Both the position numbers and the translations under genes were made by a program. Of a stretch of 64,000 nt of DNA, positions 3,165 to 60,087 are shown piece by piece. Within the stretch, counting starts at the first letter, position 1. Each line of letters opens with the position of its first letter. The notes under the pieces are model-generated. The model was not told the DNA's origin, did no database searches, and saw nothing but the letters and a program-made list of their open reading frames with translations. Origin of the DNA: an uncultured bacterium (lineage in GTDB: Bacteria > Patescibacteriota > Minisyncoccia > UBA6257 > 2-01-FULL-56-20); NCBI GenBank assembly GCA_963844965.1, contig CAWJQC010000007.1, positions 32,001 through 96,000 of the forward strand, in the 5' to 3' direction.

Positions 3165-3201
3165 GTTGTTTTGTTTATTATACCGCTTATACGCAAAAAA
3201 A

Positions 3202-4563: not shown

Positions 4564-4575
4564 GTGAGATACGAT

Positions 4576-5799: not shown

Positions 5800-5888
5800 G
5801 GTGTCAAATGAATGGTCTTATTTGTTTATTGTTATAAAATTTTTTTTGAAAGCCTACCAAAGAAACAAGAGAACAATTGTCAAAGTTC

Positions 5889-6737: not shown

Positions 6738-6742
6738 CGGAA

Positions 6743-9421: not shown

Positions 9422-9456
9422 ACAGTGATTCGACGGCTTTTTGCCGTTTTTTTTCG

Positions 9457-10499: not shown

Positions 10500-10531
10500 G
10501 ACACAATGGTAGTTTGTTTCGACCTTTGTGT

Positions 10532-13147: not shown

Positions 13148-13795
13148 ATGGATAAAGAAAAGCAAGAACAAGAAATTGAAGAGACTGCGTCGACAAATCA
13201 ATCCAAGAAGCCACGCAAATTAAAAGCGCGTTTACTGCGCCTTTATTACCTCGCCGTTTGGAACAGTACCCTCCGCAAAGATCGCTGCGTACAGTGGTTT
13301 CGGCGATATGCGCACGCCCTACGCGAAATTTTTATCTTAATAGTCACGATCGTTGCGGCTTGGTCTATCACGCAATTCATCGACATTTCTTCAATTTCGA
13401 CGAATAACTTGGCGAGTTGTTTTGTCGCGGTTGGTGCGATGATCGGTGGCGTCATAGCCATCGTGTTTTCGCTCTCGATTTTTGCCCAGCAAAGCAGCGC
13501 CGATCTTTATTCATCCCAGTATTTCGAGGTGTATGCCCACGATTGGAAAGAGAAGATGACGTATTCGTTAATTGTGCTCATAACGATTGCGTTCTTCGTC
13601 GGCGGAATCATTTTTTACGGCAACGCGAACTTGGCCACGGTCTATAAGTATGTCGGTGTGTATGCATCGCTGATCTTAATAGGAACCGTCTTCATTTTGG
13701 TCGATTGGCAGTACCGAAACGTAACGTCGAAGGCTAATCCCATTAAAGCGCTCAACTTTCTCGAAAGGCAATCTGACCCGGATAGGATAATTTAG
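13148..13795 (+). CDS. Membrane protein, C-terminus running into the IS terminus (probably truncated)
   Basis: 215 aa; several hydrophobic helices; the last codons ..DPDRII* are encoded by the IS IRL. Confidence 0.45.
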   Translation: MDKEKQEQEIEETASTNQSKKPRKLKARLLRLYYLAVWNSTLRKDRCVQWFRRYAHALREIFILIVTIVAAWSITQFIDISSISTNNLASCFVAVGAMIGGVIAIVFSLSIFAQQSSADLYSSQYFEVYAHDWKEKMTYSLIVLITIAFFVGGIIFYGNANLATVYKYVGVYASLILIGTVFILVDWQYRNVTSKANPIKALNFLERQSDPDRII

Positions 13796-13827
13796 ACACA
13801 AAGGTCGAAACAAACTACCATTGTGTC

Positions 13828-14091
13828 ATGAGCAACAAAAAAGGGCATCGGATTGCGAAGGAAGTGAAGGCGGACATCCTCCGCCGGGTGAAGGAAGAAG
13901 GAGTCCCCGTAGCGCAGGCTGCGAAGGACCACGGTTTGCACGAGTCCACCATCTACAATTGGCTAGGCGCAGGAGCATCGGGCGTCCCTTCCTGGGGCGA
14001 GTTCAGCCGTCTCCAGAAGCAGAACAGGGAGCTGTTTGAAGTGGTGGGCGAGCTCACCGTGAAGCTCTCCCAGGCCCAAAAAAAGAATTGA
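13828..14091 (+). CDS. IS3 transposase OrfA
   Basis: Identical to the other copies. Confidence 0.85.
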   Translation: MSNKKGHRIAKEVKADILRRVKEEGVPVAQAAKDHGLHESTIYNWLGAGASGVPSWGEFSRLQKQNRELFEVVGELTVKLSQAQKKN

Positions 14092-14870
14092 CGGAAAAGC
14101 GGAACAAGTCCGCCATGGCGCGGGCCATGGGCGTCTCGCGGGCATCGCTCTACTACGTATCACGGCAGGACAAGAAAGATTGGGCGCTCAAGATCCGCAT
14201 GGAAGAAGAATTGCAGCGCCATCCGGCATACGGTTCCCGGCGCTTGGGACAAGCTCTGGGCGTGAGCCGTCCGCGAGCGCAGCGCGTCATGCGAATCTTC
14301 GGCATAAGGCCGTACCGGAGGCGAGGCAGGAAATACCGGAAATCAAAGGCATCGCGGGCCTTTCCGAACCTCTTACTTGCCATCATGCCCTCGTACGCGA
14401 ACCACGTCTGGGCAACCGATTTCACGGAGTTCCTGTATCGCGGCAAGAAAGTGTACGTGTCCACGATACTCGATCTTTTCACGAGACGATTGATGGGCGT
14501 CCATGTGGCGTTGCGGAAAGGATCGCCCCTCACGATACAGACCCTGGCCAACGCGCTTTTCCACCATCCGCATCCGGTCATCTTCCATTCGGACAACGGC
14601 AGCGAGTACAAGGCACGAGCGTTCACCGATACACTGGGGGACTGTGGCATCACGATCTCGCGGTCGCGGCCCGGTGCCCCATGGGAAAACGGCTACCAGG
14701 AATCGTTCTATGACAAGTTCAAGATTGACCTCGGTGATCCCAACCGGTTCGGGACCTTCGGCGAGCTCGTGGCGGAGATCTACAGCACCTTGTGGCAGTA
14801 CAACCACACGCGGATCCACTCCGCCCTCAAGATGCCGCCGTCCGTGTTTGCCGAGAAGATTGCGGCTTAA
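14088..14870 (+). CDS. IS3 transposase OrfB
   Basis: Identical to the other copies; -1 frame relative to orfA. Confidence 0.85.
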   Translation: MTEKRNKSAMARAMGVSRASLYYVSRQDKKDWALKIRMEEELQRHPAYGSRRLGQALGVSRPRAQRVMRIFGIRPYRRRGRKYRKSKASRAFPNLLLAIMPSYANHVWATDFTEFLYRGKKVYVSTILDLFTRRLMGVHVALRKGSPLTIQTLANALFHHPHPVIFHSDNGSEYKARAFTDTLGDCGITISRSRPGAPWENGYQESFYDKFKIDLGDPNRFGTFGELVAEIYSTLWQYNHTRIHSALKMPPSVFAEKIAA

Positions 14871-14929
14871 CGAAAAAAAACGGCAAAAAGCCGTCGAATC
14901 ACTGTCTAAAGAAACCTATCCTTTACAGG

Positions 14930-17554: not shown

Positions 17555-17626
17555 GCGCGTGTAGCTCAGTGGTAGAGCACAGTCCTGATAAGACTGGGGT
17601 CGATGGTTCAATTCCATCCACGCGCA
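17555..17626 (+). tRNA. tRNA-Ile (anticodon GAU)
   Basis: Full cloverleaf: acceptor gcgcgtg/cacgcgc, D arm gctc-agtggta-gagc, anticodon arm cagtc-ctGATaa-gactg, T arm gatgg-ttcaatt-ccatc, discriminator A; CCA not encoded. Confidence 0.85.
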
Positions 17627-17635
17627 CATCATAAT

Positions 17636-17711
17636 TGGTGCGGGGCAAGTAAGACAGACCTGCCTGCCGGCAGGCAGGGGTCGAAGGTTCGATTCCTTCT
17701 GTGCCCACCAA
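17636..17711 (+). other. tRNA-like 3' module (10-bp perfect hairpin + T arm + acceptor strand + encoded CCA), no canonical 5' half
   Basis: ttggtgcgggg...cctgcctgccggcaggcagg ggtc gaagg-ttcgatt-ccttc tgtgccc a CCA; the complementary acceptor strand gggcaca lies ~300 nt upstream at 17375. Confidence 0.3.
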
Positions 17712-18566: not shown

Positions 18567-20177
18567 ATGTCTGATACGCCCGGTTTCATAGGGGGAGCTA
18601 TGCGCAAGGGTCTTCTTGTTGCCCTATTGGCCTTCATTGTGCTCGCCGGTCTGACCATCTCGATCGGCTTGTATTATTATCGATTTATAAATCAGCAGCT
18701 TACTTTGAGCGTTTACAATCACCGGCTGGTTGTCGCGAGCCTGACCGCATCCGGAATCAAGTTGAAATTGGACCATCTTGAGGGGATCGCGATATCTTTC
18801 GCGGCGCAGGACGACATGCGCGCAGAAATTATTGGCGGCAGATGGGAAGACGCCATGGCTAAGGCCGAGGACCTCTCCAACAGCCCAGATTTTTATGATT
18901 ACTACATAGACAGAACCTTATTGGTGGACGCCTCGGGAGCCATAAGAGCTGCCTATCCGCTCCTTAGCGGAACCATGGGTTTGCCCAAGTCAAATTTTAA
19001 GGAGTGGAGCGTTCCCCTTGAGAACGGGCAGGCCGCGTATGTTTCCGATGTCTATGAAAGGTCCGTCTCCCCGCGGATTAATGTCGTTGACGTCGTCGCG
19101 CCGGTTGCGGCGCACTCCGTTATTTACGGCTTCGTCGTTCTGCAGGTGCCCATCAATGAATTTTCCGATTTCGGCCAGGATACCGACATCAGCTCCAACG
19201 GTTTTGCCTACATAGTTGACAGGAAGGGTCAGATTGTATATCACCCGAAATATTCTTCCGTCGGTCCCATTGTTGACTATTCGGAGGTGCCGGCTGTGCA
19301 AAAATTGCTCAGCGGCGAAACCGGAATCGGAATTTTATCCAATCCGATTGAGAGAACGGAGAGAGTGTCGGCTTACGAATTGGTGCCGACATACGGGTGG
19401 GGCGTTGTGTCCGTGGAGCCGACCGCGGACGCGTTTGAGGCGCGGAATAGCATTTTGCACCAGATTTTGCTGGCCATTTCGGTTTTATGCGCATCAGAGC
19501 TTTTCCTGGCGATTTTCATTTTTTGGCTGGTTACGAGGTCCGAGAGAAGCAAACCGAACGCGGGATACGCGAGACAATTTCCGAAGACGCCGCCGAGGGC
19601 CAGCGGAGGGTTCACGCTGATAGAACTTTTGGTCGTTATCGCCATTATCGCCGTTTTGTCCATAGTCGTCATCCTGACCCTTAATCCGACGGAACTTCTG
19701 CGCCAGGCGAGGGATTCCGACAGGATTTCGGATCTCTCCATAATAAAGAGCGCCATTTCTATTTATTTGGTAGACCTGCGCAATCCGATTATCGCTTCCT
19801 CTACGGAATACTGCTACGAATCGGTCTTGGCAGCGAACGTCACCACTACCTACAGCACTTGGTTTCCCTCAATCCCACTCGGCAATGCGACTACTTCTCC
19901 GCAAGCTACCTACAGAAATATTGACGGCACGGGCTGGATTCATGTGAACTTTACCCAAATCAGCGCCGGCACGCCCTTCGGCCAGCTTCCGATCGACCCC
20001 TTGAATAACGCACAGTATATGTATATGTATGTAGGCAGTTCCACGCAGTCCACATTCAAACTCGCTACGGATATGGAAAGTTCAAAGTACGGCAATGGCG
20101 GAGCAGCGGACGTTGAGTCAAAAGACGGCGGCACTGACCCGAATAAATACGAAGCCGGAAGCAATCTCAATTTGTAG
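18567..20177 (+). CDS. dCache-like sensor domain (two TM helices) fused in frame to a type IV pilin/pseudopilin module
   Basis: N-terminal TM, ~300-aa periplasmic domain with Cache-like YVSDVY..GFVVLQVP..IVDRKGQIVYHP, second TM, then GGFTLIELLVVIAIIAVLS prepilin class-III signal, then a pilin body homologous to the two downstream pilins. Confidence 0.6.
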   Translation: MSDTPGFIGGAMRKGLLVALLAFIVLAGLTISIGLYYYRFINQQLTLSVYNHRLVVASLTASGIKLKLDHLEGIAISFAAQDDMRAEIIGGRWEDAMAKAEDLSNSPDFYDYYIDRTLLVDASGAIRAAYPLLSGTMGLPKSNFKEWSVPLENGQAAYVSDVYERSVSPRINVVDVVAPVAAHSVIYGFVVLQVPINEFSDFGQDTDISSNGFAYIVDRKGQIVYHPKYSSVGPIVDYSEVPAVQKLLSGETGIGILSNPIERTERVSAYELVPTYGWGVVSVEPTADAFEARNSILHQILLAISVLCASELFLAIFIFWLVTRSERSKPNAGYARQFPKTPPRASGGFTLIELLVVIAIIAVLSIVVILTLNPTELLRQARDSDRISDLSIIKSAISIYLVDLRNPIIASSTEYCYESVLAANVTTTYSTWFPSIPLGNATTSPQATYRNIDGTGWIHVNFTQISAGTPFGQLPIDPLNNAQYMYMYVGSSTQSTFKLATDMESSKYGNGGAADVESKDGGTDPNKYEAGSNLNL

Positions 20178-20290
20178 ATATATTTGCAAATGTGTCTTCG
20201 CGCGCTACTTCCCGCACCTCCTCAGGACGGGTTTTCGGTTATCCACAGAGGCGGTTATGAAGACGTGAGCGGTTTGTTACAATTAAGATT

Positions 20291-20330
20291 GTTGGTATTA
20301 GCAAAACGAAAAAGGTCGATTTGACGCGAT
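20291..20330 (+). promoter_or_regulatory. Conserved upstream element of pilin paralogs (copy 1)
   Basis: gttggtatta.c.aaac.a.aaaggtcgatttgacgcgat, repeated at 21205-21244 at the same distance from the start codon. Confidence 0.35.
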
Positions 20331-20348
20331 GTTTAGTGTGAAATAAAC

Positions 20349-20954
20349 ATGTCAAAGAAAACCAATAAAGGTTTTACGCTCGTTGAGCTTCTGGTTGTTA
20401 TCGCCATTATCGCCGTAATGTCCATAGTCGTCATTTTGACCCTTAACCCGGCGGAACTTCTGCGCCAGTCAAGGGATTCCAACAGAATTTCGGATATGGC
20501 GACGCTTAAGAGCGCGATGTCGCTCTACCTCGCGGATGTGAACGCGCCGTACCTCGGGACAAGTACCTGGTGTTATCAGGATGTAAGCGCGGCAAACGCC
20601 GCTACCGCGGGCACGAGCTCGAATTCCTGCAATGCTACGTTCGGTAATAATCCCGCCACAAATGCCGTGAGCAATGTGGCTTCTCCGAGGAATGTGGACG
20701 GCACGGGCTGGATTCCGGTTAATTTCTCCAAAATCAGCTCCGGCGCTCCGTTCGGCCAGCTTCCGATTGACCCCCTGGACAATGATGCGTTGCACCTGTA
20801 TCTCTACAAGACATCGAGCACGCTTCTCACTTTCCACATTGCAGTAAAGATGGAAAGCGCGAAGTACAGCTATCCTTCAGCCACCAATATTGAGGGTACC
20901 GATGGCGGCACCTCGCTTACCGAGTATGAAGTTGGAAATAATTTGAGCTTGTAA
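20349..20954 (+). CDS. Type IV pilin / pseudopilin (class III signal peptide)
   Basis: MSKKTNKGFTLVELLVVIAIIAV; conserved C-terminal VDGTGWIPVNF..GQLPIDPLDND. Confidence 0.75.
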   Translation: MSKKTNKGFTLVELLVVIAIIAVMSIVVILTLNPAELLRQSRDSNRISDMATLKSAMSLYLADVNAPYLGTSTWCYQDVSAANAATAGTSSNSCNATFGNNPATNAVSNVASPRNVDGTGWIPVNFSKISSGAPFGQLPIDPLDNDALHLYLYKTSSTLLTFHIAVKMESAKYSYPSATNIEGTDGGTSLTEYEVGNNLSL

Positions 20955-20996
20955 CGTCTGCGGACGGCAAGCCAGTCCGATTCTTGGCTTAAGAAC

Positions 20997-21028
20997 GTGA
21001 GCGCTCCGACCAAAGTCGGAGCGCTCAC
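20997..21028. terminator. Hairpin terminator after the pilin gene
   Basis: gtgagcgctccgac-caaa-gtcggagcgctcac followed by a T-rich stretch. Confidence 0.5.
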
Positions 21029-21204
21029 GTTTCTGCGTTGCCAGAACATCGTTCCGACCGCGGAAATATGCGGCGGCTCGGTTTCTGAGGCCGGCTCCAT
21101 CTTTGCTTTCGTTGATTTGCGCGAGCGGTATGGCCATAAATTGGGCTTTTGGGTTATCCACAGAGCATTCTGCGGATAAGGGGGAGATTTGCTATAATGT
21201 ATTT

Positions 21205-21244
21205 GTTGGTATTAACCAAACAAGAAAGGTCGATTTGACGCGAT
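21205..21244 (+). promoter_or_regulatory. Conserved upstream element of pilin paralogs (copy 2)
   Basis: See 20291-20330. Confidence 0.35.
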
Positions 21245-21252
21245 ATTCACAC

Positions 21253-21888
21253 AAAACGAATATGTCAAAGAAAACCAGCAAAGGTTTTACACTTATTGAA
21301 CTTTTGGTCGTTATTGCCATTATCGCCGTCTTGTCCATAGTCGTCATCTTGACCCTTAACCCCGCGGAACTCCTGCGTCAGGCGAGGGATTCCAACAGAA
21401 TTTCGGATATGTCCGTGGCGAAGAGCGCGATTTCGCTCTACCTCGCGGACGTGAGCTCGAATATCTCTATCGGGAGCACAACACCGTTCGTATACTGCTA
21501 TGAGGATGTTTCTGCGGCAAATGCGACCACTAATGGCACTACTTCGGCGAGTTGCAAAAGTGGTGTGGCAGGCGCAGAAACGTTTGCGAGCGACATAAGC
21601 TCCTCTAGCAACGCGGTTACTCCCAGAAACGTTGACGGCACGGGCTGGATTCCGGTTAACTTCACTAAAATCAGCTCCGGCGCGCCAATCGGTCAGCTTC
21701 CGGTTGACCCGTTAGATAATGACGGCATGCACATGTACCTCTACAGAACGAGTTCAACCCTCGTTTTCAAGATGGCGACAAAGATGGAAAGCTCTAAGTA
21801 CAGCAAGGGCGGCGCAGGTGACGTTGAGTCAACCGATGGCGGCACTAATACTGGCATGTATGAATCGGGAACCAATTTGAGTTTGTAG
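21253..21888 (+). CDS. Type IV pilin / pseudopilin
   Basis: MSKKTSKGFTLIELLVVIAIIAV; the ORF track extends it upstream to 21103, but this Met gives the canonical short leader. Confidence 0.75.
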   Translation, partial: KTNMSKKTSKGFTLIELLVVIAIIAVLSIVVILTLNPAELLRQARDSNRISDMSVAKSAISLYLADVSSNISIGSTTPFVYCYEDVSAANATTNGTTSASCKSGVAGAETFASDISSSSNAVTPRNVDGTGWIPVNFTKISSGAPIGQLPVDPLDNDGMHMYLYRTSSTLVFKMATKMESSKYSKGGAGDVESTDGGTNTGMYESGTNLSL

Positions 21889-21933
21889 TATGTAGGCGTG
21901 TGAAAGTTTGTCCCGGCGGTTTGTCCCACAAGG

Positions 21934-21963
21934 GGAGCGCTCCGACTTTGGTCGGAGCGCTCC
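21934..21963. terminator. Hairpin terminator after the pilin gene
   Basis: ggagcgctccgac-tttg-gtcggagcgctcc + TTTGTGTTTTT; same stem as 20997-21028 in opposite orientation. Confidence 0.5.
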
Positions 21964-48690: not shown

Positions 48691-51208
48691 ATGCGCAAAC
48701 AAGATGTTCTCGGGATAAGTTTGAGCGGGCTTTTTGGCGAATTGAGATCGTCCGAGAACGGTCTCACCGAAGAAGAAGCCGCCAAACGTTTTCGCGAGCA
48801 CGGTCCGAATATTCTCAAAAAAGAAGGCGTTAGCGCGCTCGGAGTTTTGCTTCGCCAATTCCAAAGCTCACTGATTTATCTTCTTGTCGCGGCGAGCGCG
48901 ATATCTTTTTGGATTAGGGATTATTCGGATGGGACGATTATCGCCGTTATTCTCCTCGTCAACGCCTCCCTGGGATTTTTTCAGGAATATAGATCGGAAA
49001 AGATCGTTGAGAAACTTTCAAAGTTTATCAGCCACCAAGTTCGCCTCAGGAGAAGCGGGCAGATTGTGTTATTGGACGAATCACGGATTGTTGTCGGAGA
49101 CGTGCTTGTCGTTCGCGAAGGCGATATTGTTCCGGCGGACATGCGGCTGTTTGAAGCCGACAATCTGGAAGTGAACGAGTCGCAGCTTACGGGCGAGTCG
49201 GTGCCGGTCGTTAAGCGTGTCTCAAATGATATCGCCAAAAATCCCGACTGCCTCGTTTTCACTGGCAGCGTCATTGAGAAAGGTGAGGGCGTTGGGATTG
49301 TCTATGCGATCGGCAACGACACGGAATTGGGAACTATCGCCAGGTTGTCAACGGAAACAAAGAAAGAAACGCAGTATGAGAAATCACTGCGGTCATTCAG
49401 TTCTTCTTTGATGAAAGTTGTTCTCCTCGGCTTGGCCCTGGTTTTCGCGCTCAAGTTGATTTTGAACGGAGGATTTTCAAACGCAGCGGGTCTTTTGCTT
49501 TTTATCATAGCCATGGCCGTTGCCGTGGTGCCCGAAGTTCTGCCGGTTATCGCCACGGTTACCTTGTCAAACGGAGCATTGAAACTCGCCAAAAGGCATG
49601 TGGTAGTTAAACGCCTGTCGTCGCTGGAGGATCTCGGCAATGTGGATTTGCTGTGCGCCGATAAGACAGGGACCATCACCGAAAACAGAATGGTCATAAA
49701 CAAAATTGTTTCCGCCGATGATAAATTGTTTCAGGAGCTTGCCTACGCCGCCATTACGCCCCTGAAAGGCAGAAAGAGAAGGATGCAGAATTCGTATGAC
49801 GACGCGTTCAACCGATATGTTTCCGACGCCGTGAGGAAAGAGGCGGTGAATTTCAGAGATCTTGAAAGAACTTCCTTTTGACCCGTATGACAGGAGAAGC
49901 CGGGTGGTGCTTGAGGATGCGGCGCACGGAAAACACTTTCTGCTTTCAATCGGCGCCCCCGAAGCGGTCTTTGAAATTAGCGGGAGCGAGCAAAAAGCGA
50001 AATATCTGGAAGACATCGCCGCGGAAGGCAGAAAAGGCCTGCATCATCTGGCGATAGCGTACAAGGAAGTATCATATGCTAACGATTTTGATATTTTGAA
50101 AAACGAACGCGATTTGAAATTCCTCGGATATGTGAGTTTAGAAGATCCGTTGCGGCCTACGGCCAAGAATACCGTTTACCTTGCCGAAAAACTTGGCATA
50201 AAAATCAAAATCCTGACGGGAGACAGCAAAGAGGTCGCCGAGTATGTCGGAAAGCAAATAGGGTTGGTGAAAGAGGGAGATAAAGAGGAAGATAAGGTGT
50301 ATCTCGGCGGCGAACTTGAGAAAATGTCGGAGGACGAATTCAGGACAGCCGTTCGGAGATGCAATGTGTTCGCCAGAGTTTCTCCGACCGATAAATACAA
50401 TATTATAAGGGCTCTCAAGGAAACTAATGTCGTCGGCTACGAGGGAGACGGCATCAATGACGCTCCGGCGCTGAAACTGGCGGACGTGGCGATCGCGGTC
50501 AACTCGGCCACGGACATCGCCAAGGAAAATTCCGACATTGTTCTTCTCAACAAAAGCCTTGAGGTCGTTATCAACGGCATAAAATACGGCAGGTCCATAT
50601 TCGTGAATATCAATAAGTATATTAAATACACCATGGTAAATAATTTTGGCACCTTTATTGCACTGGCCGTTTTATACTTGCTGTCTGCCTATTTACCAAT
50701 GCTCCCGATTCAAATACTTTTGACGAATGTGATTACAGACATTCCTCTCGTCACAATTTCGTCCGACACGGTTGAAGATGTAGAAGTAGTGCGGCCGGAA
50801 AAACACAATACGAAAGAACTGGTGTTCATCTCGCTTATTCTGGGAATTCCAACGGCTTTTTTTGAACTTCTCTACTTCTTGATTATCCGCTCACATCCCC
50901 GAGAGTTCGTGGCAACAGGCCTTTACGTCTTCCTTACCTTCTTGGCATTAATTGTTTTCTATGCGATAAGAAACAAAGAAAATTTCTGGAAAACAAAGCA
51001 GCCATCCCGTCTTTTGAACGTCTCTTTTGTGCTCGCTTTTGTCTTCTCGCTCGCGATCATTTATATGCCCCAGTTTCAGGCGTGGTTTTCCTTCGTGCCG
51101 TTGCCCGCGGCGTCGGTGATTGTCATTCTAATTCTGATGGTGCTCTACCTTTTCGCGGTGGATTTCGTCAAGGTGAGGTATTACAAGTTTTCTGCGGGGG
51201 AGAAATGA
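48691..51208 (+). CDS. mgtA: Mg2+-type P-type ATPase (MgtA-like), split by a frameshift near 49862-49870
   Basis: 48691-49881 carries TGES and CADKTGTIT; 49862-51208 carries GDGINDAPAL and the C-terminal TMs; the two frames join at ..NFRDL|KELPFDP. Confidence 0.75.
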
Positions 51209-51862: not shown

Positions 51863-51968
51863 GCAAAAGGGAAGTCACAGTTTGTGCACCGATTTCCTTA
51901 CACAAAATTAAAAAATATTGCTTGCTATGACAACAGGAATCGAACCTAAAATTGGAAGCCCCCGATAT

Positions 51969-52023
51969 CCAGAGGCTATTATAAGTGTCCTTTCAGATAG
52001 AAATTATATGGAAAATCTGCATT
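51969..52023 (+). repeat. 55-bp direct repeat, copy A
   Basis: ccagaggctattataagtgtcctttcagatagaaattatatggaaaatctgcatt; ~85% identical to 54485-54539. Confidence 0.6.
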
Positions 52024-52296
52024 TTAAATTCTGTTTCATAAAGGCGTTACAACGCTCAGAAACGGCACATTAACGGCGGCAAGAAATTATTATAACAAAG
52101 GACCTCTTCTTGCGCGGCATAGTAGACGACGCTAGAGCCGTCATCCAGCGATAAAATGAGTATATTTACATCCCAAATTTGAGGGCAGAAGCAATGAGGG
52201 TATAATTTCACCTACTGCATTATTCACTATTTCTCTTGCCATAATATCCTGCGCTTGACACCTGTTTTTAATTTTTGGAAGGGATATAATTATATT

Positions 52297-52572
52297 ATGA
52301 ATAAAAAATTACTAATAAGCGTCTTAGGTGTCTTCGTGTTATTAATTTTAGGCCTAGCCGGTTATTATTTGTGGTTTTATAAAAAACCAATGTCTCCTAC
52401 CGCCGAACAAGCGGTTACGGATATTCAAAAAACGGTTCAGTCTATTGATCAGAATGTAGCCGGGAGTGTTTTCGGCACCACAACGGCTAATCCAATGGAG
52501 AATGTCCCCGATGTTAATCCCTATAAAAATACCAACCCATTTTCAGATATTAAAACCAATCCTTTTCAATAA
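52297..52572 (+). CDS. Small signal-anchored protein
   Basis: MNKKLLISVLGVFVLLILGLAGYYLWFY.. then an N/P/T-rich tail. Confidence 0.4.
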   Translation: MNKKLLISVLGVFVLLILGLAGYYLWFYKKPMSPTAEQAVTDIQKTVQSIDQNVAGSVFGTTTANPMENVPDVNPYKNTNPFSDIKTNPFQ

Positions 52573-52577
52573 AAACT

Positions 52578-54263
52578 ATGAATAAAAAAACTTTAAGCGT
52601 ATTGATACTAATTTCTTCAGTAATGATCTCCGGTGTTATTGTCGGTTCGGCGATGGCGCAGACCCCGGCCGATCAAAGTACGACAACTTTATCCGCAAGT
52701 ATCACGTATCCGATTCCGGAATTGGGCAATTGTCAAAGTCAGGCGGATTGTAAAACCTTTTGCGACGATACCAAGAATACCGATGCCTGTTTGGCTTTTG
52801 CCCAAGCCAATAATTTAATGAGTTCCGACCAAGTGGCTGCCGCTAAAAAATTTGCGGATAGCGGAATGGTTGGTCCGGGCGGATGCAAGGGAGAAACCGA
52901 ATGCGACACGTATTGCGGCGATACGAGCCACATAGAAGAGTGTATTACGTTTGCGCAAAATAACGGATTGATGTCCGAACAAAAGCTACAGGAATCGCAA
53001 AAGGTTTTGGCAGCCATTAAAACAGGTGTCAAACCTTTGGGCTGCAATAGTGAGCAGGAATGTGAAGCATATTGTGCGACCGCTGAACATATGGAGGAGT
53101 GCATAAATTTCGGCACCGAGGCAGGAATATTGCCGGCTCAGGATCAGGAGAATGCGCGCAAAGTTTTGACCGCTATAAAAAATGGTGCCGTGCCTCCGTG
53201 CGAAGGTGATGCGTGTCCGGCTTTTTGCAGCAAACCGCAGAACGCGGATGCTTGCGAGAAGTTCCGTATCGAGGCTGGAATTCCGTCACGCTCCGAAATG
53301 ATAGTAGTTCAGGCAATACTTACTCTTATAGCAAAAGGAACTACTATGTCTACTTGCAGCGGTGCGCAAGGATGCCAGGATTATTGTTCTCAAGATGCCC
53401 ATGCTGAAGAATGCGCTAAATTTGCCGAGGATAATGGGGCGATTACGTCTTCAGAGGCAGAAGCAGCTATAGGCGGAGAAGCAGCGCCCGAAGGACCGGG
53501 TGGATGTAAGACTAAAGACGAGTGCGATGCTTATTGCAATAATCCGGATAATTCCGAAACTTGCTTTAATTATGCCAAGGATAACGGACTGATTTCCTCG
53601 GAAGACCTAAAGAAAATAGAAGATAGCCAGCAGCAAATGAAAGATTCTTTTAATAATATGCCCGCAGAGATATTAACCTGTTTAACTACTTCTTTAGGCG
53701 CAGACACGGTTGAAAAATTAAAAAGCGGAAACGCTATACCAGATCAGAAAACGGCCGAACAAATGAAGACTTGTTTTGACCAATACACTCCAACCGCTCC
53801 AACCGCTCCGGCTGGTCCGGGGAGTCAAGCCGGACAAAATCAGGGCGGACAAGGACAGGGTGGCGGAGGAGGTGGCAACGGTGGTGGTAGCGGCGGAGGT
53901 AGTGGCGGGGGAGGACAGGGCCAAGGTAACCAACCAACCCAACCTACTCAACCGAGCCAACCTATGCAACCAACCCAACCTACTCAACCGGGCCAGCCGA
54001 CTCAGCCCAGCCAACCATCACAGCTACTACCTCAGACGGGCCCCGGTGGATGCAAAACCATCGAAGAATGTAAGACGTATTGCCAGGCGCATCCGGAAGC
54101 TAAAACAGAGTGTCAGCAATTTAAGCAGAGTCAACAGGGACAATCTGGACAGAATCAGCCGACGCAAGGCCCGAATAATCAACAACCCAGTCAACCCAGC
54201 CAGCCGACTCCACCGCAACCTCCGACTCAGCCTACTCCACCAAGTCAACCAAGCCCGCCATAA
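52578..54263 (+). CDS. Secreted protein with ~9 tandem 4-Cys repeats (C-x5-C-x3-C-x8-C) plus Gly-rich and PTQ-rich tail
   Basis: Signal peptide; repeats such as GPGGCKGETECDTYCGDTSHIEECITFAQNNGLMS; GGQGQGGGGGG and QPTQPTQPSQP low-complexity tail. Confidence 0.6.
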   Translation: MNKKTLSVLILISSVMISGVIVGSAMAQTPADQSTTTLSASITYPIPELGNCQSQADCKTFCDDTKNTDACLAFAQANNLMSSDQVAAAKKFADSGMVGPGGCKGETECDTYCGDTSHIEECITFAQNNGLMSEQKLQESQKVLAAIKTGVKPLGCNSEQECEAYCATAEHMEECINFGTEAGILPAQDQENARKVLTAIKNGAVPPCEGDACPAFCSKPQNADACEKFRIEAGIPSRSEMIVVQAILTLIAKGTTMSTCSGAQGCQDYCSQDAHAEECAKFAEDNGAITSSEAEAAIGGEAAPEGPGGCKTKDECDAYCNNPDNSETCFNYAKDNGLISSEDLKKIEDSQQQMKDSFNNMPAEILTCLTTSLGADTVEKLKSGNAIPDQKTAEQMKTCFDQYTPTAPTAPAGPGSQAGQNQGGQGQGGGGGGNGGGSGGGSGGGGQGQGNQPTQPTQPSQPMQPTQPTQPGQPTQPSQPSQLLPQTGPGGCKTIEECKTYCQAHPEAKTECQQFKQSQQGQSGQNQPTQGPNNQQPSQPSQPTPPQPPTQPTPPSQPSPP

Positions 54264-54422
54264 CAACCAACTCCACCACAACTGCCGACTCCGCCAAGCA
54301 GTTTCTTGCGACAAACGCAGAAGTTTTTAGGGAGCATCTTGGATGTATTCACGAGGTAAGGATTTTTGCAATAAAATAGATTGTTATTCCTCCCGGCCCT
54401 CTCCTTCGGTTCGAATCCAGAC

Positions 54423-54455
54423 TGTCAAAACGAGAAATAAAAATGAACGGCGCAA
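54423..54455 (+). terminator. Rho-independent terminator
   Basis: atgaacgg-cgcaaga-ccgttcat followed by TTTTTATTTT. Confidence 0.6.
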
Positions 54456-54484
54456 GACCGTTCATTTTTATTTTAGCTCCAGGT

Positions 54485-54539
54485 TCCAGAAGCTATTATA
54501 AGTGTCTTATCGGATAGGAATTATATGGAAAATCTGTAT
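54485..54539 (+). repeat. 55-bp direct repeat, copy B
   Basis: ccagaagctattataagtgtcttatcggataggaattatatggaaaatctgtatt. Confidence 0.6.
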
Positions 54540-54644
54540 TCCAAGTTTTACATTTTGAGGGAGATGGAGCGGTTGGAAATATCTAAATGTAAAGGATAGG
54601 TTTCTTTAGACAGTGATTCGACGGCTTTTTGCCGTTTTTTTTCG

Positions 54645-55427
54645 TTAAGCCGCAATCTTCTCGGCAAACACGGACGGCGGCATCTTGAGGGCGGAGTGGA
54701 TCCGCGTGTGGTTGTACTGCCACAAGGTGCTGTAGATCTCCGCCACGAGCTCGCCGAAGGTCCCGAACCGGTTGGGATCACCGAGGTCAATCTTGAACTT
54801 GTCATAGAACGATTCCTGGTAGCCGTTTTCCCATGGGGCACCGGGCCGCGACCGCGAGATCGTGATGCCACAGTCCCCCAGTGTATCGGTGAACGCTCGT
54901 GCCTTGTACTCGCTGCCGTTGTCCGAATGGAAGATGACCGGATGCGGATGGTGGAAAAGCGCGTTGGCCAGGGTCTGTATCGTGAGGGGCGATCCTTTCC
55001 GCAACGCCACATGGACGCCCATCAATCGTCTCGTGAAAAGATCGAGTATCGTGGACACGTACACTTTCTTGCCGCGATACAGGAACTCCGTGAAATCGGT
55101 TGCCCAGACGTGGTTCGCGTACGAGGGCATGATGGCAAGTAAGAGGTTCGGAAAGGCCCGCGATGCCTTTGATTTCCGGTATTTCCTGCCTCGCCTCCGG
55201 TACGGCCTTATGCCGAAGATTCGCATGACGCGCTGCGCTCGCGGACGGCTCACGCCCAGAGCTTGTCCCAAGCGCCGGGAACCGTATGCCGGATGGCGCT
55301 GCAATTCTTCTTCCATGCGGATCTTGAGCGCCCAATCTTTCTTGTCCTGCCGTGATACGTAGTAGAGCGATGCCCGCGAGACGCCCATGGCCCGCGCCAT
55401 GGCGGACTTGTTCCGCTTTTCCGTCAA
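54645..55427 (-). CDS. IS3 transposase OrfB
   Basis: Identical to the other copies. Confidence 0.85.
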   Translation of the reverse strand: MTEKRNKSAMARAMGVSRASLYYVSRQDKKDWALKIRMEEELQRHPAYGSRRLGQALGVSRPRAQRVMRIFGIRPYRRRGRKYRKSKASRAFPNLLLAIMPSYANHVWATDFTEFLYRGKKVYVSTILDLFTRRLMGVHVALRKGSPLTIQTLANALFHHPHPVIFHSDNGSEYKARAFTDTLGDCGITISRSRPGAPWENGYQESFYDKFKIDLGDPNRFGTFGELVAEIYSTLWQYNHTRIHSALKMPPSVFAEKIAA

Positions 55428-55687
55428 TTCTTTTTTTGGGCCTGGGAGAGCTTCACGGTGAGCTCGCCCACCACTTCAAACAGCTCCCTGTTCTGCTTCT
55501 GGAGACGGCTGAACTCGCCCCAGGAAGGGACGCCCGATGCTCCTGCGCCTAGCCAATTGTAGATGGTGGACTCGTGCAAACCGTGGTCCTTCGCAGCCTG
55601 CGCTACGGGGACTCCTTCTTCCTTCACCCGGCGGAGGATGTCCGCCTTCACTTCCTTCGCAATCCGATGCCCTTTTTTGTTGCTCAT
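55424..55687 (-). CDS. IS3 transposase OrfA
   Basis: Identical to the other copies. Confidence 0.85.
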   Translation of the reverse strand: MSNKKGHRIAKEVKADILRRVKEEGVPVAQAAKDHGLHESTIYNWLGAGASGVPSWGEFSRLQKQNRELFEVVGELTVKLSQAQKKN

Positions 55688-55741
55688 GACACAATGGTAG
55701 TTTGTTTCGACCTTTGTGTCTAAATTATCCTATCCGGGTCA

Positions 55742-55773
55742 ACCTTTGTGTCTAAATTATCCTATCCGGGTCA
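55742..55773 (-). repeat. Tandem duplicate of the terminal 32 bp (IRL) of the IS3 element
   Basis: acctttgtgtctaaattatcctatccgggtca repeats 55710-55741 exactly. Confidence 0.7.
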
Positions 55774-55776
55774 AGT

Positions 55777-55951
55777 GATGGTTGATTTAAGTAAGCTCTA
55801 TCCCGATATTGATATTGCCGAAACGCTCTCGAACCTAACGGGAAAATGGATCAAGACAATCAAGGGCAATAAGGTTGAATTTTCTGATGGTAGCGAGATA
55901 GATACAAGCGATATGGATTACAAACTTATTAAGCCATTGATTTGGTGGTAA
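55777..55951 (+). CDS. Small hypothetical protein
   Basis: ~58 aa from MVDLSKLYPDIDIAE..; N-terminus resembles the start of the downstream helicase (MSKLY..). Confidence 0.3.
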
Positions 55952-58650
55952 ATATGTCGAAGTTGTATTTACAAGACATAGTTGAGGACATCCCGTTTGA
56001 TGATCTGCCCGCGAAATGGCAGGACTTTGACTTCGGCAGGTTTTCTTCCGATAAAACACTATTTGGCTTCCAGCAAAATGGCTTACGGAACGCTCTGAAA
56101 GCGCTCTGGCTTTTTTATAAAGATAGGAAGGGAAACAAAATAGAGCTTTATGAACAATATAAGGCAAATGGCTTGGGCGCGGATTTTGATTATGATTTGA
56201 CGCGAGAAAGAAAAGCCGCTGACCATCTTTTGGAATTTGATACGGATTATCCGAAAACAGACGGCAAAATTGCTTTTGCCCACTTCTTAAACCGCATGAG
56301 CTTTTGGATGGCTACGGGCTCTGGAAAGACGCTGATTATCGTAAAACTCATTGATATGCTCGGCGCTTTAATGAGGCAAAAAGAGATTCCTCAAAACGAT
56401 ATTCTGTTCTTGGCTCATAGGGACGACCTTTTGGAACAATTCAAAAATCATGTGGATCAATTCAATAGCTTCAATTTTGAAACAAGAATCAACTTCAAGA
56501 GCTTGAAAGATTATGAGAGCGTCAAGCGCGAGAACGCTCTGCCATTTGCAAAAAACGAGATAACGGTATTCTACTACCGCTCGGATTTAATATCAGACGA
56601 GCACAAAGAAAAAATTGTCAATTTCAAAAATTATGATAACGGCGGCAAGTGGTATGTTCTTCTCGATGAGGCGCACAAAGGCGATAGAGAGGACAGCAAA
56701 AGACAGATTCTATATTCAATCCTTTCAAGAAGCGGCTTTCTGTTCAATTTTTCCGCTACCTTTACCGATCCGCGGGATTACGCAACCTGTGCCTTTAATT
56801 TCAATCTTTCAAAATTCATTGAGGATGGTTACGGCAAGCATATTTATGTATCAAGCGCGGAAGTAACGGCTTTCCGCGATCAAGACGACTTCTCAAAAAT
56901 TACGAAGCAGAAAATCGTTTTGAAAACGCTGATACTGCTTACATATATCAATAAGTATTTTGAGAAGGTTCGGAAACAGGATAAAAAGCTGTATCATCGC
57001 CCACTCCTTCTTACTCTCGTCAATTCCGTTGATACGAAAGATGCGGACTTAAAGCTGTTCTTTTCCGAACTGGAAAAGATAGCCAAAAATGAAATAAGAG
57101 GCGACTTGATTGAAAAAGCCAAAGAGGAACTCATAAAAGAATTTGAAGAAAATCCGCAATATGAATTTGAGGGCATAAATGTAGAGATTGATAAGGCCTC
57201 GCTCAAAAAAATCTGCTATAAGGATATTTTGAAGCAGATTTTCAACGCAAAATCTTCTGGTAATATCGAGGTTTTGAAAATTCCGAATAACAGAAACGAA
57301 ATAATCTTTAAGCTGCAAACTTCTGAAAAACCATTCGGGCTGATTAAGATCGGGGATATTTCGGGATGGCTTAAGGAAACGCTTGAGGGTTATGAAATAA
57401 TCGAGAGCTTTGAGAATGAAAGCGTATTTAAGCGGATCAACCACGATGACTCCGAAATTAACATTCTGATGGGCTCCCGTGCCTTTTACGAGGGCTGGGA
57501 CTCAAACAGGCCGAACATTCTCTTATTCGTAAATATCGGCATCGGAAGCGACGCAAAGAAGTTTGTCCTGCAATCCGTTGGCCGAGGCGTAAGAATTGAA
57601 CCGCAAAAGAATAAACGGAAAAGAATTTTGGAATTGCACAACGCAAAAGAAATAAAGACAGAGCTATTTAATAAAATCCGAAGCAATATACAAGCGCTTG
57701 AGAGCTTGTTCGTATTCGGAACAAACGCCGATAATCTGAAGGAAATAATCAAGGCGCTGAAAGAAGAAAAACAAGAGCAAGATTTAGGTGCCGAATTTAT
57801 TATAAATAAAGATGCTGAAAAACGGCTGTTGCTTATACCTACTTACCGAGAATCGGAAAAGATATTTGCCGAAGAAAAAGAGCCGCAGAAATACGGAATC
57901 AGCCGAGAGGACTTGGCACTCGCAAAATCAATGTTCAGCTATCTTGGCGATAAAGTAACTCTGGCAAAATTTGAGTGTGAAGTAAGGGTTATTAAAAAGA
58001 CAGCCGAGAGTTTTGAAACAGCCGAGCAATACTTTGACCTTAACGAGGAGAGGTCAATTTCCGAGCCAGATTTGCTGGTTGATAGGATACTGGACTACTT
58101 CAGCGTCAGGGATAAAGAATTTGATAAATTCAAAAAACTGGAAAACGAGATCGTCCACTTCAAGCGGATAAGGTTTAATGACGGCGAGAAGTTTGAAGAA
58201 ATAAAACAGAAAATCGGCAAAATAAAGGAGTATCCAGAAAGACAGCGAGAACTGGATAAACAATACGGAAAAATATCGCGGGAAGAATTTGCGAGAAAGC
58301 AGGCGAGTTTGTTTGACGCGCAGACCTTTGAATACAAGAGCAAAAAGCTAAAAATCAAATATATCCAAAACCATTACTACATTCCTCTGATTATTTCAGA
58401 AAATGAAAAAGTTGATTATCTCAACCACATTATTGATGTTGAAAGCGAAGTCCGTTTCATAGAACAATTGGAAGAATACCTACAGCAGGACGACAATGTA
58501 TTCAAACAATTTGATTGGTGGATGTTCTCAAAGCTCGATCAAACGCTGGACGAAGTTCATGTGCCGTATTACAGCCCAAAAGAAAACAATATGGCAAGGT
58601 TTAAGCCCGACTTTATCTTCTGGCTGCAAAAGGTGACCCGGATAGGATAA
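55942..58650 (+). CDS. Superfamily-2 DEAH helicase, type III restriction Res-like (ResIII/PF04851-like), C-terminus interrupted by an IS
   Basis: Motif I MATGSGKT, II VLLDEAHKG, III SATF, VI QSVGRGVRI; C-terminus ..KPDFIFWLQK reads straight into the IS IRL, so a C-terminal (nuclease?) portion may be lost. Confidence 0.7.
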   Translation: MVVNMSKLYLQDIVEDIPFDDLPAKWQDFDFGRFSSDKTLFGFQQNGLRNALKALWLFYKDRKGNKIELYEQYKANGLGADFDYDLTRERKAADHLLEFDTDYPKTDGKIAFAHFLNRMSFWMATGSGKTLIIVKLIDMLGALMRQKEIPQNDILFLAHRDDLLEQFKNHVDQFNSFNFETRINFKSLKDYESVKRENALPFAKNEITVFYYRSDLISDEHKEKIVNFKNYDNGGKWYVLLDEAHKGDREDSKRQILYSILSRSGFLFNFSATFTDPRDYATCAFNFNLSKFIEDGYGKHIYVSSAEVTAFRDQDDFSKITKQKIVLKTLILLTYINKYFEKVRKQDKKLYHRPLLLTLVNSVDTKDADLKLFFSELEKIAKNEIRGDLIEKAKEELIKEFEENPQYEFEGINVEIDKASLKKICYKDILKQIFNAKSSGNIEVLKIPNNRNEIIFKLQTSEKPFGLIKIGDISGWLKETLEGYEIIESFENESVFKRINHDDSEINILMGSRAFYEGWDSNRPNILLFVNIGIGSDAKKFVLQSVGRGVRIEPQKNKRKRILELHNAKEIKTELFNKIRSNIQALESLFVFGTNADNLKEIIKALKEEKQEQDLGAEFIINKDAEKRLLLIPTYRESEKIFAEEKEPQKYGISREDLALAKSMFSYLGDKVTLAKFECEVRVIKKTAESFETAEQYFDLNEERSISEPDLLVDRILDYFSVRDKEFDKFKKLENEIVHFKRIRFNDGEKFEEIKQKIGKIKEYPERQRELDKQYGKISREEFARKQASLFDAQTFEYKSKKLKIKYIQNHYYIPLIISENEKVDYLNHIIDVESEVRFIEQLEEYLQQDDNVFKQFDWWMFSKLDQTLDEVHVPYYSPKENNMARFKPDFIFWLQKVTRIG

Positions 58651-58687
58651 TTTAGACACAAAGGTCGAAACAAACTACCATTGTGTC

Positions 58688-58951
58688 ATGAGCAACAAAA
58701 AAGGGCATCGGATTGCGAAGGAAGTGAAGGCGGACATCCTCCGCCGGGTGAAGGAAGAAGGAGTCCCCGTAGCGCAGGCTGCGAAGGACCACGGTTTGCA
58801 CGAGTCCACCATCTACAATTGGCTAGGCGCAGGAGCATCGGGCGTCCCTTCCTGGGGCGAGTTCAGCCGTCTCCAGAAGCAGAACAGGGAGCTGTTTGAA
58901 GTGGTGGGCGAGCTCACCGTGAAGCTCTCCCAGGCCCAAAAAAAGAATTGA
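58688..58951 (+). CDS. IS3 transposase OrfA
   Basis: Identical to the other copies. Confidence 0.85.
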   Translation: MSNKKGHRIAKEVKADILRRVKEEGVPVAQAAKDHGLHESTIYNWLGAGASGVPSWGEFSRLQKQNRELFEVVGELTVKLSQAQKKN

Positions 58952-59730
58952 CGGAAAAGCGGAACAAGTCCGCCATGGCGCGGGCCATGGGCGTCTCGCG
59001 GGCATCGCTCTACTACGTATCACGGCAGGACAAGAAAGATTGGGCGCTCAAGATCCGCATGGAAGAAGAATTGCAGCGCCATCCGGCATACGGTTCCCGG
59101 CGCTTGGGACAAGCTCTGGGCGTGAGCCGTCCGCGAGCGCAGCGCGTCATGCGAATCTTCGGCATAAGGCCGTACCGGAGGCGAGGCAGGAAATACCGGA
59201 AATCAAAGGCATCGCGGGCCTTTCCGAACCTCTTACTTGCCATCATGCCCTCGTACGCGAACCACGTCTGGGCAACCGATTTCACGGAGTTCCTGTATCG
59301 CGGCAAGAAAGTGTACGTGTCCACGATACTCGATCTTTTCACGAGACGATTGATGGGCGTCCATGTGGCGTTGCGGAAAGGATCGCCCCTCACGATACAG
59401 ACCCTGGCCAACGCGCTTTTCCACCATCCGCATCCGGTCATCTTCCATTCGGACAACGGCAGCGAGTACAAGGCACGAGCGTTCACCGATACACTGGGGG
59501 ACTGTGGCATCACGATCTCGCGGTCGCGGCCCGGTGCCCCATGGGAAAACGGCTACCAGGAATCGTTCTATGACAAGTTCAAGATTGACCTCGGTGATCC
59601 CAACCGGTTCGGGACCTTCGGCGAGCTCGTGGCGGAGATCTACAGCACCTTGTGGCAGTACAACCACACGCGGATCCACTCCGCCCTCAAGATGCCGCCG
59701 TCCGTGTTTGCCGAGAAGATTGCGGCTTAA
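58948..59730 (+). CDS. IS3 transposase OrfB
   Basis: Identical to the other copies. Confidence 0.85.
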   Translation: MTEKRNKSAMARAMGVSRASLYYVSRQDKKDWALKIRMEEELQRHPAYGSRRLGQALGVSRPRAQRVMRIFGIRPYRRRGRKYRKSKASRAFPNLLLAIMPSYANHVWATDFTEFLYRGKKVYVSTILDLFTRRLMGVHVALRKGSPLTIQTLANALFHHPHPVIFHSDNGSEYKARAFTDTLGDCGITISRSRPGAPWENGYQESFYDKFKIDLGDPNRFGTFGELVAEIYSTLWQYNHTRIHSALKMPPSVFAEKIAA

Positions 59731-59862
59731 CGAAAAAAAACGGCAAAAAGCCGTCGAATCACTGTCTAAAGAAACCTATCCTTTACATCGGGCAAAAAGT
59801 TAGAGTTTACAATGCGAAAACCGTTTGATGCGGTCCTCGAATTGGCTACTTGTCCAACTGGG

Positions 59863-59933
59863 CTCCGGCGCCTGGATTCGAACCAGGAACCTTCTCCTTA
59901 ACAGGGAGCCGCTCTACCGTTGAGCTACGCCGG
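59863..59933 (-). tRNA. tRNA-Asn (anticodon GUU)
   Basis: Reverse complement folds as acceptor tccggcg/cgccgga, D arm gctc-aacggta-gagc, anticodon loop cuGUUaa, T arm cctgg-ttcgaat-ccagg, discriminator G. Confidence 0.8.
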
Positions 59934-60087
59934 AATCCTTATTCTTATTAATGTATCAAAAAAACAGATTTTTTTCAATCTCGCCAGCCGCAATGCTGCG
60001 AGATCATACTTTAATGTTGAAAAAAAAGAAAAAAGCCGAGTGGTTGGAAAAGTTAGGAAAGGCGGCGTAAAAATTAAAACGTCCCGG

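Follow-up and report, generated by a model that had tools for sequence, protein, structure and literature searches.

We analyzed 64,000 nt of DNA from an uncultured bacterium of the Patescibacteriota (GenBank assembly GCA_963844965.1, contig CAWJQC010000007.1, positions 32,001 to 96,000 of the forward strand), henceforth referred to as the window. The analysis concerns a pair of short direct repeats, the two genes between them, and the DNA that follows as far as a tRNA-Asn gene. An earlier note, made from the sequence alone, had read the repeats as possible attachment (att) sites of a small cassette or as preferred targets of an insertion sequence (IS) of the IS3 family. The contigs (L0xx) and proteins (P0xxx) used as comparison sequences come from public data, and coordinates are those of the window unless a contig is named. 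The following open reading frames (ORFs) and other features lie at and between the two repeat copies:

51921-51967 (- strand): fragments resembling tRNA 3′ ends, just upstream of module A
51927-52073 (+ strand): ORF A, 48 aa (P0121), with the conserved module PEAIISVLSDRNYMENLHFKFCFIKALQRSETAH behind a variable N-terminus
51968-52030 (+ strand): repeat copy A, the conserved 5′ part of the predicted micro-ORF module A, with the coding frame from 51969
52082-52104 (+ strand): a third, partial module start (AGAAATTATTATAACAA, first ~20 nt), directly after the stop codon of ORF A
52297-52572 (+ strand): small protein of 91 aa whose N-terminus forms a hydrophobic anchor and whose C-terminal part carries the motif NPYKNTNPFSDIKTNPF; its gene is conserved as the partner of the Cys-repeat gene
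52578-54263 (+ strand): 561-aa secreted Cys-repeat protein
54264-54359 (+ strand): in-frame continuation of this gene past a premature TAA, carrying the conserved C-terminal motif of the family, PPSSFL...LGSILDVFTR
54435-54473: bidirectional intrinsic terminator, a 17-bp stem with an A-run and a T-run
54485-54587 (+ strand): repeat copy B (54485-54547) and the remainder of module B (coding 54486-54587)

The direct repeats (51968-52030 and 54485-54547) are 63 nt long and 86% identical; blastn reported the pair as 56 nt at 89% identity. A 45-nt degenerate pattern built from both copies matched exactly two sites in the window and was found in 0 of 100 dinucleotide-preserving shuffles. The earlier note had stated that the repeats bracket exactly two genes and their terminator, and this is indeed what lies between them: a 270-nt leader, the 91-aa gene, the 561-aa gene and the terminator. 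Its proposed check for further copies was run within the window, where just these two full sites matched. The 48 bp that it gave between copy B and the third copy of the IS element (which starts at 54588) are also correct for its 55-bp version of the repeat; measured from the end of the 63-nt repeat, the distance is 40 nt.

The repeat has the signature of a coding sequence. Of the six frames, only the plus-strand frame starting at 51969 and 54486 is open through both copies, and it reads PEAIISVLSDRNYMENL identically in each. At the peptide level the likeness of the two copies extends over 31 codons (51969-52061 versus 54486-54578). The five nucleotide differences within the first 17 codons are all synonymous (GAG/GAA, CTT/TTA, TCA/TCG, AGA/AGG), a pattern that simulation placed at P ~0.001 for a given frame. 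We obtained the DNA of three further family members (L030, L031 and L032) and compared it with the two window copies. Across these five sequences, the variable sites of the first 17 codons are distributed 5/3/14 over the three codon positions. The amino-acid replacements in the module are conservative and involve several base changes each (AGT/ACC for S/T, TTA/ATT for L/I, AAT/GAA for N/E). On these substitution patterns, from which we infer translation of the micro-ORF, the repeat is a predicted protein-coding sequence, the conserved 5′ half (17 codons) of a module of ~35 aa.

The same 51 nt recur, 73-85% identical, in the unrelated contigs L030-L032, none of which carries Cys-repeat genes. 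The 5′ half of the module showed 73-90% nucleotide identity in every pairwise comparison, unrelated contigs included, and the 3′ half 35-57%. Copies A and B of the window are 90% identical in the 5′ half and 49% identical in the 3′ half. Their identity is barely above that of unrelated contigs, a decisive point that makes the repeat the conserved core of a family rather than the scar of a local event. Because the coding arm is kept at 73-85% elsewhere, the identity between A and B neither dates nor marks an insertion. The two copies would be alike through family-wide purifying selection, not through duplication during the insertion of the intervening DNA.

We searched for relatives of the module in two ways. 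A word-indexed search with the 40-aa peptide against 5.8 billion proteins returned a sole match, the 48-aa ORF of copy A itself. An exhaustive search of 1.8 billion cluster representatives with a profile of the two copies returned 23 further small ORFs of 36-143 aa (best E-value 1.6e-10). In nearly all of them the module forms the C-terminus and is preceded by unrelated N-terminal sequence; its consensus is ..[ED].II[TS][IV][LF]SD[RK].YME.LY..[FL].F[IL][KR].[ML][QE][RK].E. Profile matches to a TALE-like protein (P0232) and a HEAT-repeat protein (P0241) were discounted as convergent; they cover only the 11-18-residue start of a helix (PEAIVSVLS). No match to family members was found in Pfam, PHROGs or PADLOC. 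A scan of genome, viral and metagenome collections for TAAGTGTC-N11-13-TTATATGGAAAA gave chance-level counts of 4, 0 and 17 loci with a pattern that is too strict even for the true member L030; the best local alignment score among these loci was 27 of a possible 63. The family is one of rare micro-ORFs of Patescibacteria-like genomes.

AlphaFold (AF2), given the family alignment, modelled the module as a short helix followed by a long helix, with a predicted local distance difference test score (pLDDT) of 90-97 in the core; on ORF A it placed helices at residues 16-23 and 25-47. ORF A contains the whole module and ends at the stop codon position usual for the family. A partial second module start after the stop is common to window copy A, L030 and L031, and the motif AGAARNTATTATAA occurs three times in the window, always at this locus. 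Fuller members of the family consist of a further domain, X, then the residues WLP, then the module. Many members read W-L-P at this point, which is the antisense of ...GGNAGCCA, that is, of a tRNA end of the form ...GGAGCCA, and L035, the contig of member P0251, has TGGCTCC at the core position.

In L035 the X-module ORF directly follows a gene for a SWIM zinc-finger protein (region 251-7259 of that contig). A recombinase gene was sought upstream of X and none was found, the upstream gene being the SWIM gene. Beside the X-module ORF lie a gene for a DUF4268 protein and genes for an FtsK-gamma protein and a type I restriction-modification (R-M) methylase (HsdM), a setting reminiscent of defense or mobile-element DNA.

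Sequences resembling tRNA 3′ ends also adjoin module A. One is a T-arm 11-mer (GGTTCGATTCC, 51936-51946); the other, TGGAAGCCCCCG, looks like an acceptor and CCA end in antisense. No tRNA could be called at 51921-51967, and only ARAGORN at a 70% threshold reported one. Copy A is regarded as a putative resident member of the family, 48 aa long, beside decayed tRNA-end junctions.

Copy B has a different setting. A stop codon stands three codons upstream of its conserved part, and an IS copy abuts the last codon of module B. The DNA from the terminator to the tRNA-Asn gene contains the following:

54474-54480 (+ strand): core-like TAGCTCC, the left junction of the proposed island, to be compared with TGGGCTCC in L030 and with the tRNA-Asn 3′ end
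54588-55741 (- strand): IS copy 3, with orfA (HTH_Tnp_1) and orfB (rve) and TG...CA ends
55742-55773 (+ strand): a lone 32-nt terminal inverted repeat of the IS, directly adjoining IS copy 3 in a tandem end-end arrangement
55748-55951 (+ strand): remnant of a type III methyltransferase gene (mod), matching only the last ~55 positions of an 816-position profile
55942-58650 (+ strand): type III restriction enzyme (res) ORF, its 3′ end running into IS copy 4, with a GC content of 0.39-0.41
58634-59787 (+ strand): IS copy 4, inverted relative to copy 3
59788-59858 (+ strand): X′ segment (SGKKLEFTMRKPFDAVLELATCPT), a homologue of the N-terminal half of the L030 ORF that reads X-core-module
59859-59935 (- strand): tRNA-Asn (GTT), whose 3′-terminal 8 nt GGAGCCCA read TGGGCTCC on the plus strand at 59859-59866

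In L030 the module is part of a single ORF (P0238), DGKKLAFTMRKPFDVVLELAECPNGLP-VPEVIITIISDREYMENL..., and the 75 nt immediately 5′ of the module are homologous by tblastx to window positions 59791-59865, beyond the fourth IS copy and beside tRNA-Asn. There the window reads SGKKLEFTMRKPFDAVLELATCPTGLRRLDSNQEPSP*, running into the antisense of tRNA-Asn. The X/X′ pair is coding as well, with seven synonymous and four non-synonymous codon differences, and its homology ends at the 3′-terminal 8 nt of the tRNA. We aligned the three sequences on the shared octamer TGGGCTCC and counted identities over 75 nt to the left and 60 nt to the right:

L030 versus window X′: left arm 54/75, right arm 15/60
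L030 versus copy B: left arm 20/75, right arm 46/60
window X′ versus copy B: left arm 20/75 and right arm 14/60, both at the random level

L030 therefore resembles X′ on one side of the octamer and module B on the other. The arms switch at TGGGCTCC, the last 8 nt of tRNA-Asn, where copy B has TAGCTCC. The octamer stands at 59859-59866, and the heptamer at 54474-54480 matches it at 7/8 positions with one base missing. In the one reference contig, X, core and module are unbroken, as in an attP site, and the crossed arms are at the random level. The DNA enclosed by these junctions has foreign characteristics: GC content falls to 0.39-0.41 at 56-58 kb against ~0.50 for the window, and the cargo is a type III R-M system. 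The mod and res remnants are each abutted by an IS copy. Removing the proposed island reconstructs an empty site in which the bidirectional terminator of the Cys operon lies directly against the 3′ end of the convergent tRNA-Asn, a natural layout that agrees with the proposal below.

Recombination between X-core-module and flank-core-tRNA is expected to yield flank-core-module at one end and X′-core-tRNA at the other, and this is the pattern seen from 54474 onwards and at 59788-59935. We propose that copy B is the left arm of an island of ~5.4 kb (54474-59866), inserted in the 3′ end of tRNA-Asn through site-specific recombination. The insertion would have split an X-core-module ORF that spanned the attP site, leaving the core and module B next to the terminator of the Cys operon and fusing X′ and the core to the tRNA. 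The island would have carried the type III R-M system, since gutted by two copies of the IS3-family element. The coding signature, the family itself, the three-way junction, the R-M remnant and the conservation of the operon are shown by the data; the integration event, its direction, the recombinase acting in it and any role of the micro-protein are presumed. The DNA between the junctions (54.5-59.9 kb) is probably a decayed island integrated at tRNA-Asn. To the whole reading, in which a conserved micro-gene family supplies both repeat copies, copy B marks the left arm of the island and the Cys operon lies outside it, we assign a probability of roughly 0.6. The earlier idea that the repeats are att-like stands insofar as they are associated with an att-like junction; this junction is on the far side of copy B, and the repeats are not the attL and attR of a two-gene cassette.

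Several observations weigh against this reading. No integrase or recombinase gene was found in 54474-59866, where only IS transposases (rve, HTH_Tnp_1), the mod remnant and the truncated res occur. An integrase may have been lost through IS-mediated deletion; its absence, together with the absence of target-site duplications at the IS copies, would fit deletions caused by the IS within an old island. For the attP-like state there is one reference, L030, a contig of 1 kb. No empty attB, with the terminator followed by tRNA-Asn, was found among relatives, the closest of which are 70-80% identical at the protein level. The left core TAGCTCC differs from the right core TGGGCTCC. Copy B has no start codon upstream of its conserved part, and members have heterogeneous N-termini and no obvious ribosome-binding site, so that the translated product is uncertain. 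TAT ATG GAA AAT CTG is nearly invariant at third codon positions too; such invariance in the 5′ half of the module (51969-52019 in copy A) suggests that, besides the coding constraint, another one acts on the same nucleotides. The counts of module and core copies cover the 64-kb window of the source genome. Finally, once 54588-59787 is taken out, module B and X′ form one continuous frame that meets at domain boundaries, which could instead point to two tandem family genes with an insertion between them.

This last observation is the basis of the best-surviving alternative, in which the module and X′ are resident tandem paralogues, a block of IS and R-M genes was inserted between them, and the junction of X′ with the tRNA is a coincidence that involved no integration. 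In addition to the in-frame fusion, one member (P0253) runs past the module into an X-like start (KDRITFGF), and partial tandem module starts follow the stop in copy A, L030 and L031. However, this scenario leaves unexplained why module B lacks an X half and X′ lacks a module half, why both breaks fall at the same 7-8 nt equal to the tRNA-Asn 3′ end, and why a low-GC R-M remnant lies exactly between them. We consider it unlikely, although it deserves to be kept in view.

The arrangement proposed here for copy B can be compared with known integration systems. With genomic islands and prophages at tRNA 3′ ends it shares the low-GC type III R-M cargo directly beside tRNA-Asn, a break in homology inside the final 8 nt of the tRNA, a 7-mer resembling the core at the other end and the contiguous attP-like L030. 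It differs from them in lacking an integrase, in its very short and imperfect core, in having one attP-like reference and no empty attB, and in that its arms are coding. Archaeal viruses of the SSV1 type (Fuselloviridae) have attP within their integrase gene, so that on integration the ORF is split into two flanking fragments. The window likewise has an ORF that apparently spans the attachment site and is split into an N-terminal piece, X′, beside the tRNA and, at the opposite end, a C-terminal piece, module B. In contrast to SSV1, the split ORF is ~70-120 aa and has no recombinase domain (Pfam, PHROGs and PADLOC were negative), the host is bacterial, and the tRNA overlap measures 8 nt, against ~44 nt in SSV1. 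The e14 element and phage 21 integrate into the 3′ end of Escherichia coli icd, where the element supplies an alternative gene end with mainly synonymous differences. Two short coding copies with synonymous differences only, near an integrated element, recall that case, whereas neither window copy completes a larger gene and the synonymous pattern reflects a whole family under selection.

We also considered that the repeat is non-coding regulatory DNA, a promoter or operator upstream of two transcription units, in which the open frame is incidental. The 73-90% nucleotide identity across contigs and the near-invariant third positions in TATATGGAAAATCTG would fit such an element. So would two TATAAT boxes on the minus strand, the position of copy A ~105-130 nt upstream of a divergent CBS gene, the recurrence of AGAARNTATTATAA past the stop codon, and the missing start codon of copy B. 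Weighing against this explanation are the 5/3/14 bias towards third positions, the exclusively synonymous changes between A and B, and the conservative multi-base replacements. Furthermore, the frame is the sole open one of six, and a protein profile reaches distant members. A scan for sigma-70 promoters found no site at the repeat. RNA folding of both strands of both copies was no better than for shuffled sequence (z -0.25 to +1.55), and RNAalifold on alignments with relatives gave 0-4 pairs, zero covariation and no consensus structure. We regard a purely regulatory role as improbable.

Three other candidates for the repeat were rejected. ARAGORN and Rfam searches of both copies, up to E = 10, found no tRNA, transfer-messenger RNA or RNA family match, and with no conserved pairing a structured RNA or tRNA was discarded. 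An integron gene cassette (attC) was dismissed on the same folding scores of both strands of both copies. A template and variable repeat pair of a diversity-generating retroelement was rejected on the first five differences (G>A, C>T, T>A, A>G, A>G), which are not adenine-specific, although no scan of the entire window for a reverse transcriptase was made.

The protein encoded between the repeats, for which the earlier note recognized no repeat family, has remained without one. Pfam and NCBIfam assigned no family to it, PHROGs and PDB searches gave no significant match, and neither it nor its 91-aa neighbor has a Pfam domain. PDB matches at the sequence level were confined to the low-complexity linker, and a search of the literature for a Cys-rich secreted repeat family in Patescibacteria found nothing relevant. 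We detected more than 770 homologues, all annotated as hypothetical and without a meaningful Pfam domain; the named ones come from the Patescibacteria group. In the protein, a signal peptide precedes six tandem four-Cys units; a helical linker that contains two Cys and a low-complexity Gly/QPT stretch then lead to the seventh unit, and the tail is rich in Pro. Nine C-x5-C-x3-C-x8-C units had been counted in the earlier note. We count seven, six in tandem (one of them with x4) and one after the Gly/QPT linker, plus the two lone Cys. In an alignment of 64 sequences, the Cys of the repeat units show no or almost no variation.

A premature TAA (54261-54263) cuts the gene short. Read on in frame to 54359, the DNA specifies PPSSFLRQTQKFLGSILDVFTR, the counterpart of the C-terminal motif that reads PPSSFLKNAEKILGNVLDVFR in P0008 and PSGFLQGTQRLLANILDAFR in P0011, and the L001 homologue (80% identical) has CAA at the codon of the premature TAA.

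The AlphaFold model of the 561-aa protein is all-alpha; the units, of ~52 residues and roughly three helices each, reach a pLDDT of ~90. Its best Foldseek match in the PDB, to designed PPR proteins, was not significant (E = 0.06). PPR- and TPR-like solenoids and small helix-turn-helix bundles are the nearest structural matches, yet none reaches significance. What sets this protein apart from those helical repeats is the presence of four invariant Cys in each unit, together with its secretion and the small membrane protein conserved as its partner. Judging by the signal peptide and the four invariant Cys per unit, the product is probably a secreted, disulfide-stabilized helical-repeat protein acting with the small membrane protein; metal binding is conceivable.

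According to the note's cassette hypothesis, the repeats are attL- and attR-like ends of a 2.5-kb element that carries the genes of the small membrane protein and the Cys-repeat protein. The precise bracketing of two genes and a terminator, the tRNA-end-like fragments adjoining copy A, and the different neighbors of the gene pair in the window, L001 (80%) and L002 (70%) all speak for it, as does an exact 16-nt direct repeat that L002 has around its own pair. This repeat (ACGGAGGCGGAAGGAT, at 1843-1858 and 4351-4366 of L002, 2508 nt apart) is expected ~0.002 times by chance in 4.4 kb, and its sequence is unrelated to the window repeat. However, what copies A and B share is a coding arm rather than a recombination core, and it is conserved in contigs without Cys genes. 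Copies A and B are junctions of one type and point the same way, and the DNA between them has only the 91-aa and 561-aa genes, neither of which encodes a recombinase.

The small gene and the Cys-repeat gene are also adjacent in L002, L024/L025, L026/L027 and the contig of P0006, and in all five relatives examined, including L001, L002, L024 and L026, the pair occurs with no module or repeat alongside. On longer contigs its neighbors are housekeeping genes (lepA, recJ, NUDIX, S20 and L19), in distant Patescibacteria too. The pair is thus a common, vertically conserved Patescibacteria operon, outside the proposed island, and a mobile cassette is very improbable. Homologues of the CBS gene were examined for an empty site; the best was 70% identical, which is too distant, and the two contexts inspected were unrelated. 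In L024, from a distant relative, a tRNA-Gln (5289-5360) lies just upstream of the pair, and an exact repeat of its 3′ 40 nt follows 86 nt downstream (5409-5448), reminiscent of a very small att-type duplication.

IS copies 3 and 4 have two further counterparts in the window:

9400-10553: IS copy 1
13774-14927: IS copy 2

The four copies are 1154 bp long and 100% identical, and form two inverted pairs, 3.2 and 2.9 kb apart. They share with the IS3 family the TG...CA ends, imperfect inverted repeats and an orfA (HTH_Tnp_1) that overlaps orfB (rve). They differ from it in that all four copies lack a target-site duplication, of 3-4 bp in the family, which suggests recent IS activity followed by deletions or recombination between copies. 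A relative 75% identical to this IS occurs in the Patescibacteria contig L028, next to a CBS-gene homologue.

Some IS3-family members insert next to sequence resembling their inverted repeats, and the solo inverted repeat beside IS copy 3 indicates that this IS can insert next to its own end sequence. The notion that the repeats are preferred targets through their likeness to the IS terminus drew on this and on copy B, where CGGATAGGA, 40 nt from IS copy 3, matches 9 nt of the IS end CCGGATAGGATAA. The match is real, but the 9-mer consists of Ser-Asp-Arg codons conserved in the IS-free L030; three of the four identical IS copies have no repeat nearby, and there is no IS at copy A. Outside the IS copies, GGATAGG (7 nt) was counted three times where chance alone would give ~8, and the proximity of copy B to an IS amounts to roughly P = 0.04 only (an estimate), so that targeting is very unlikely and the earlier suggestion finds no support.

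Other features of the window were recorded in passing. A P-type cation ATPase gene (48691-51208, + strand) is split into overlapping ORFs at 48691-49881 and 49862-51208, probably by a frameshift (a pseudogene or an assembly error). Together with the premature TAA and the broken mod and res genes, it is a sign of local gene decay. Perfect tRNA T-arm 11-mers (GGTTCGATTCC / GGTTCGAATCC) occur outside called tRNAs at 17686-17696 and 54408-54418 (both + strand), the first ~60 nt after a tRNA-Ile (17555-17627). These may be tRNA 3′ fragments left by integration events. At a 70% threshold ARAGORN reported a tRNA-Ser-like structure at 54348-54429, between the Cys gene and the terminator. A full-length match to the LOOT RNA motif (Rfam RF03000; 8667-8787, + strand; 83 bits against a gathering score of 46.4) lies ~600 nt upstream of IS copy 1. 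There are also two tandem paralogue clusters with 70-95% nucleotide identity, one at 231-6737 with three ORFs of ~290 aa on the minus strand (265-6737) and one at 19579-21962 with three tandem repeats of roughly 0.8-0.9 kb each.

These results provide three leads, none of which overturns current understanding, and they correct a tempting misreading, in that a gene between direct repeats is not necessarily a mobile cassette. The first lead is an uncharacterized micro-protein family with an unusually conserved 17-codon core that occurs at tRNA-end junctions and may span an attachment site. The second is a Patescibacteria defense island that appears to be under dismantling by an active IS3-family element, with at least four nearby genes broken. 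The third is a widespread two-gene secreted module without a family or structural relative, a candidate for the surface biology of host-dependent bacteria.

A broader proposal is tentative. Patescibacteria would harbor tRNA-targeting elements whose attachment site lies inside a small X-core-module gene, so that the micro-protein is intact only when the element is excised or unintegrated and is split on integration. If true, bacteria would have their own version of the SSV-type split ORF, in a gene other than an integrase, and the micro-protein could act as a sensor or switch of the integration state. Separately, the Cys-repeat protein and its membrane partner would be a lineage-wide, structurally new disulfide-rich surface module of these episymbiotic bacteria.

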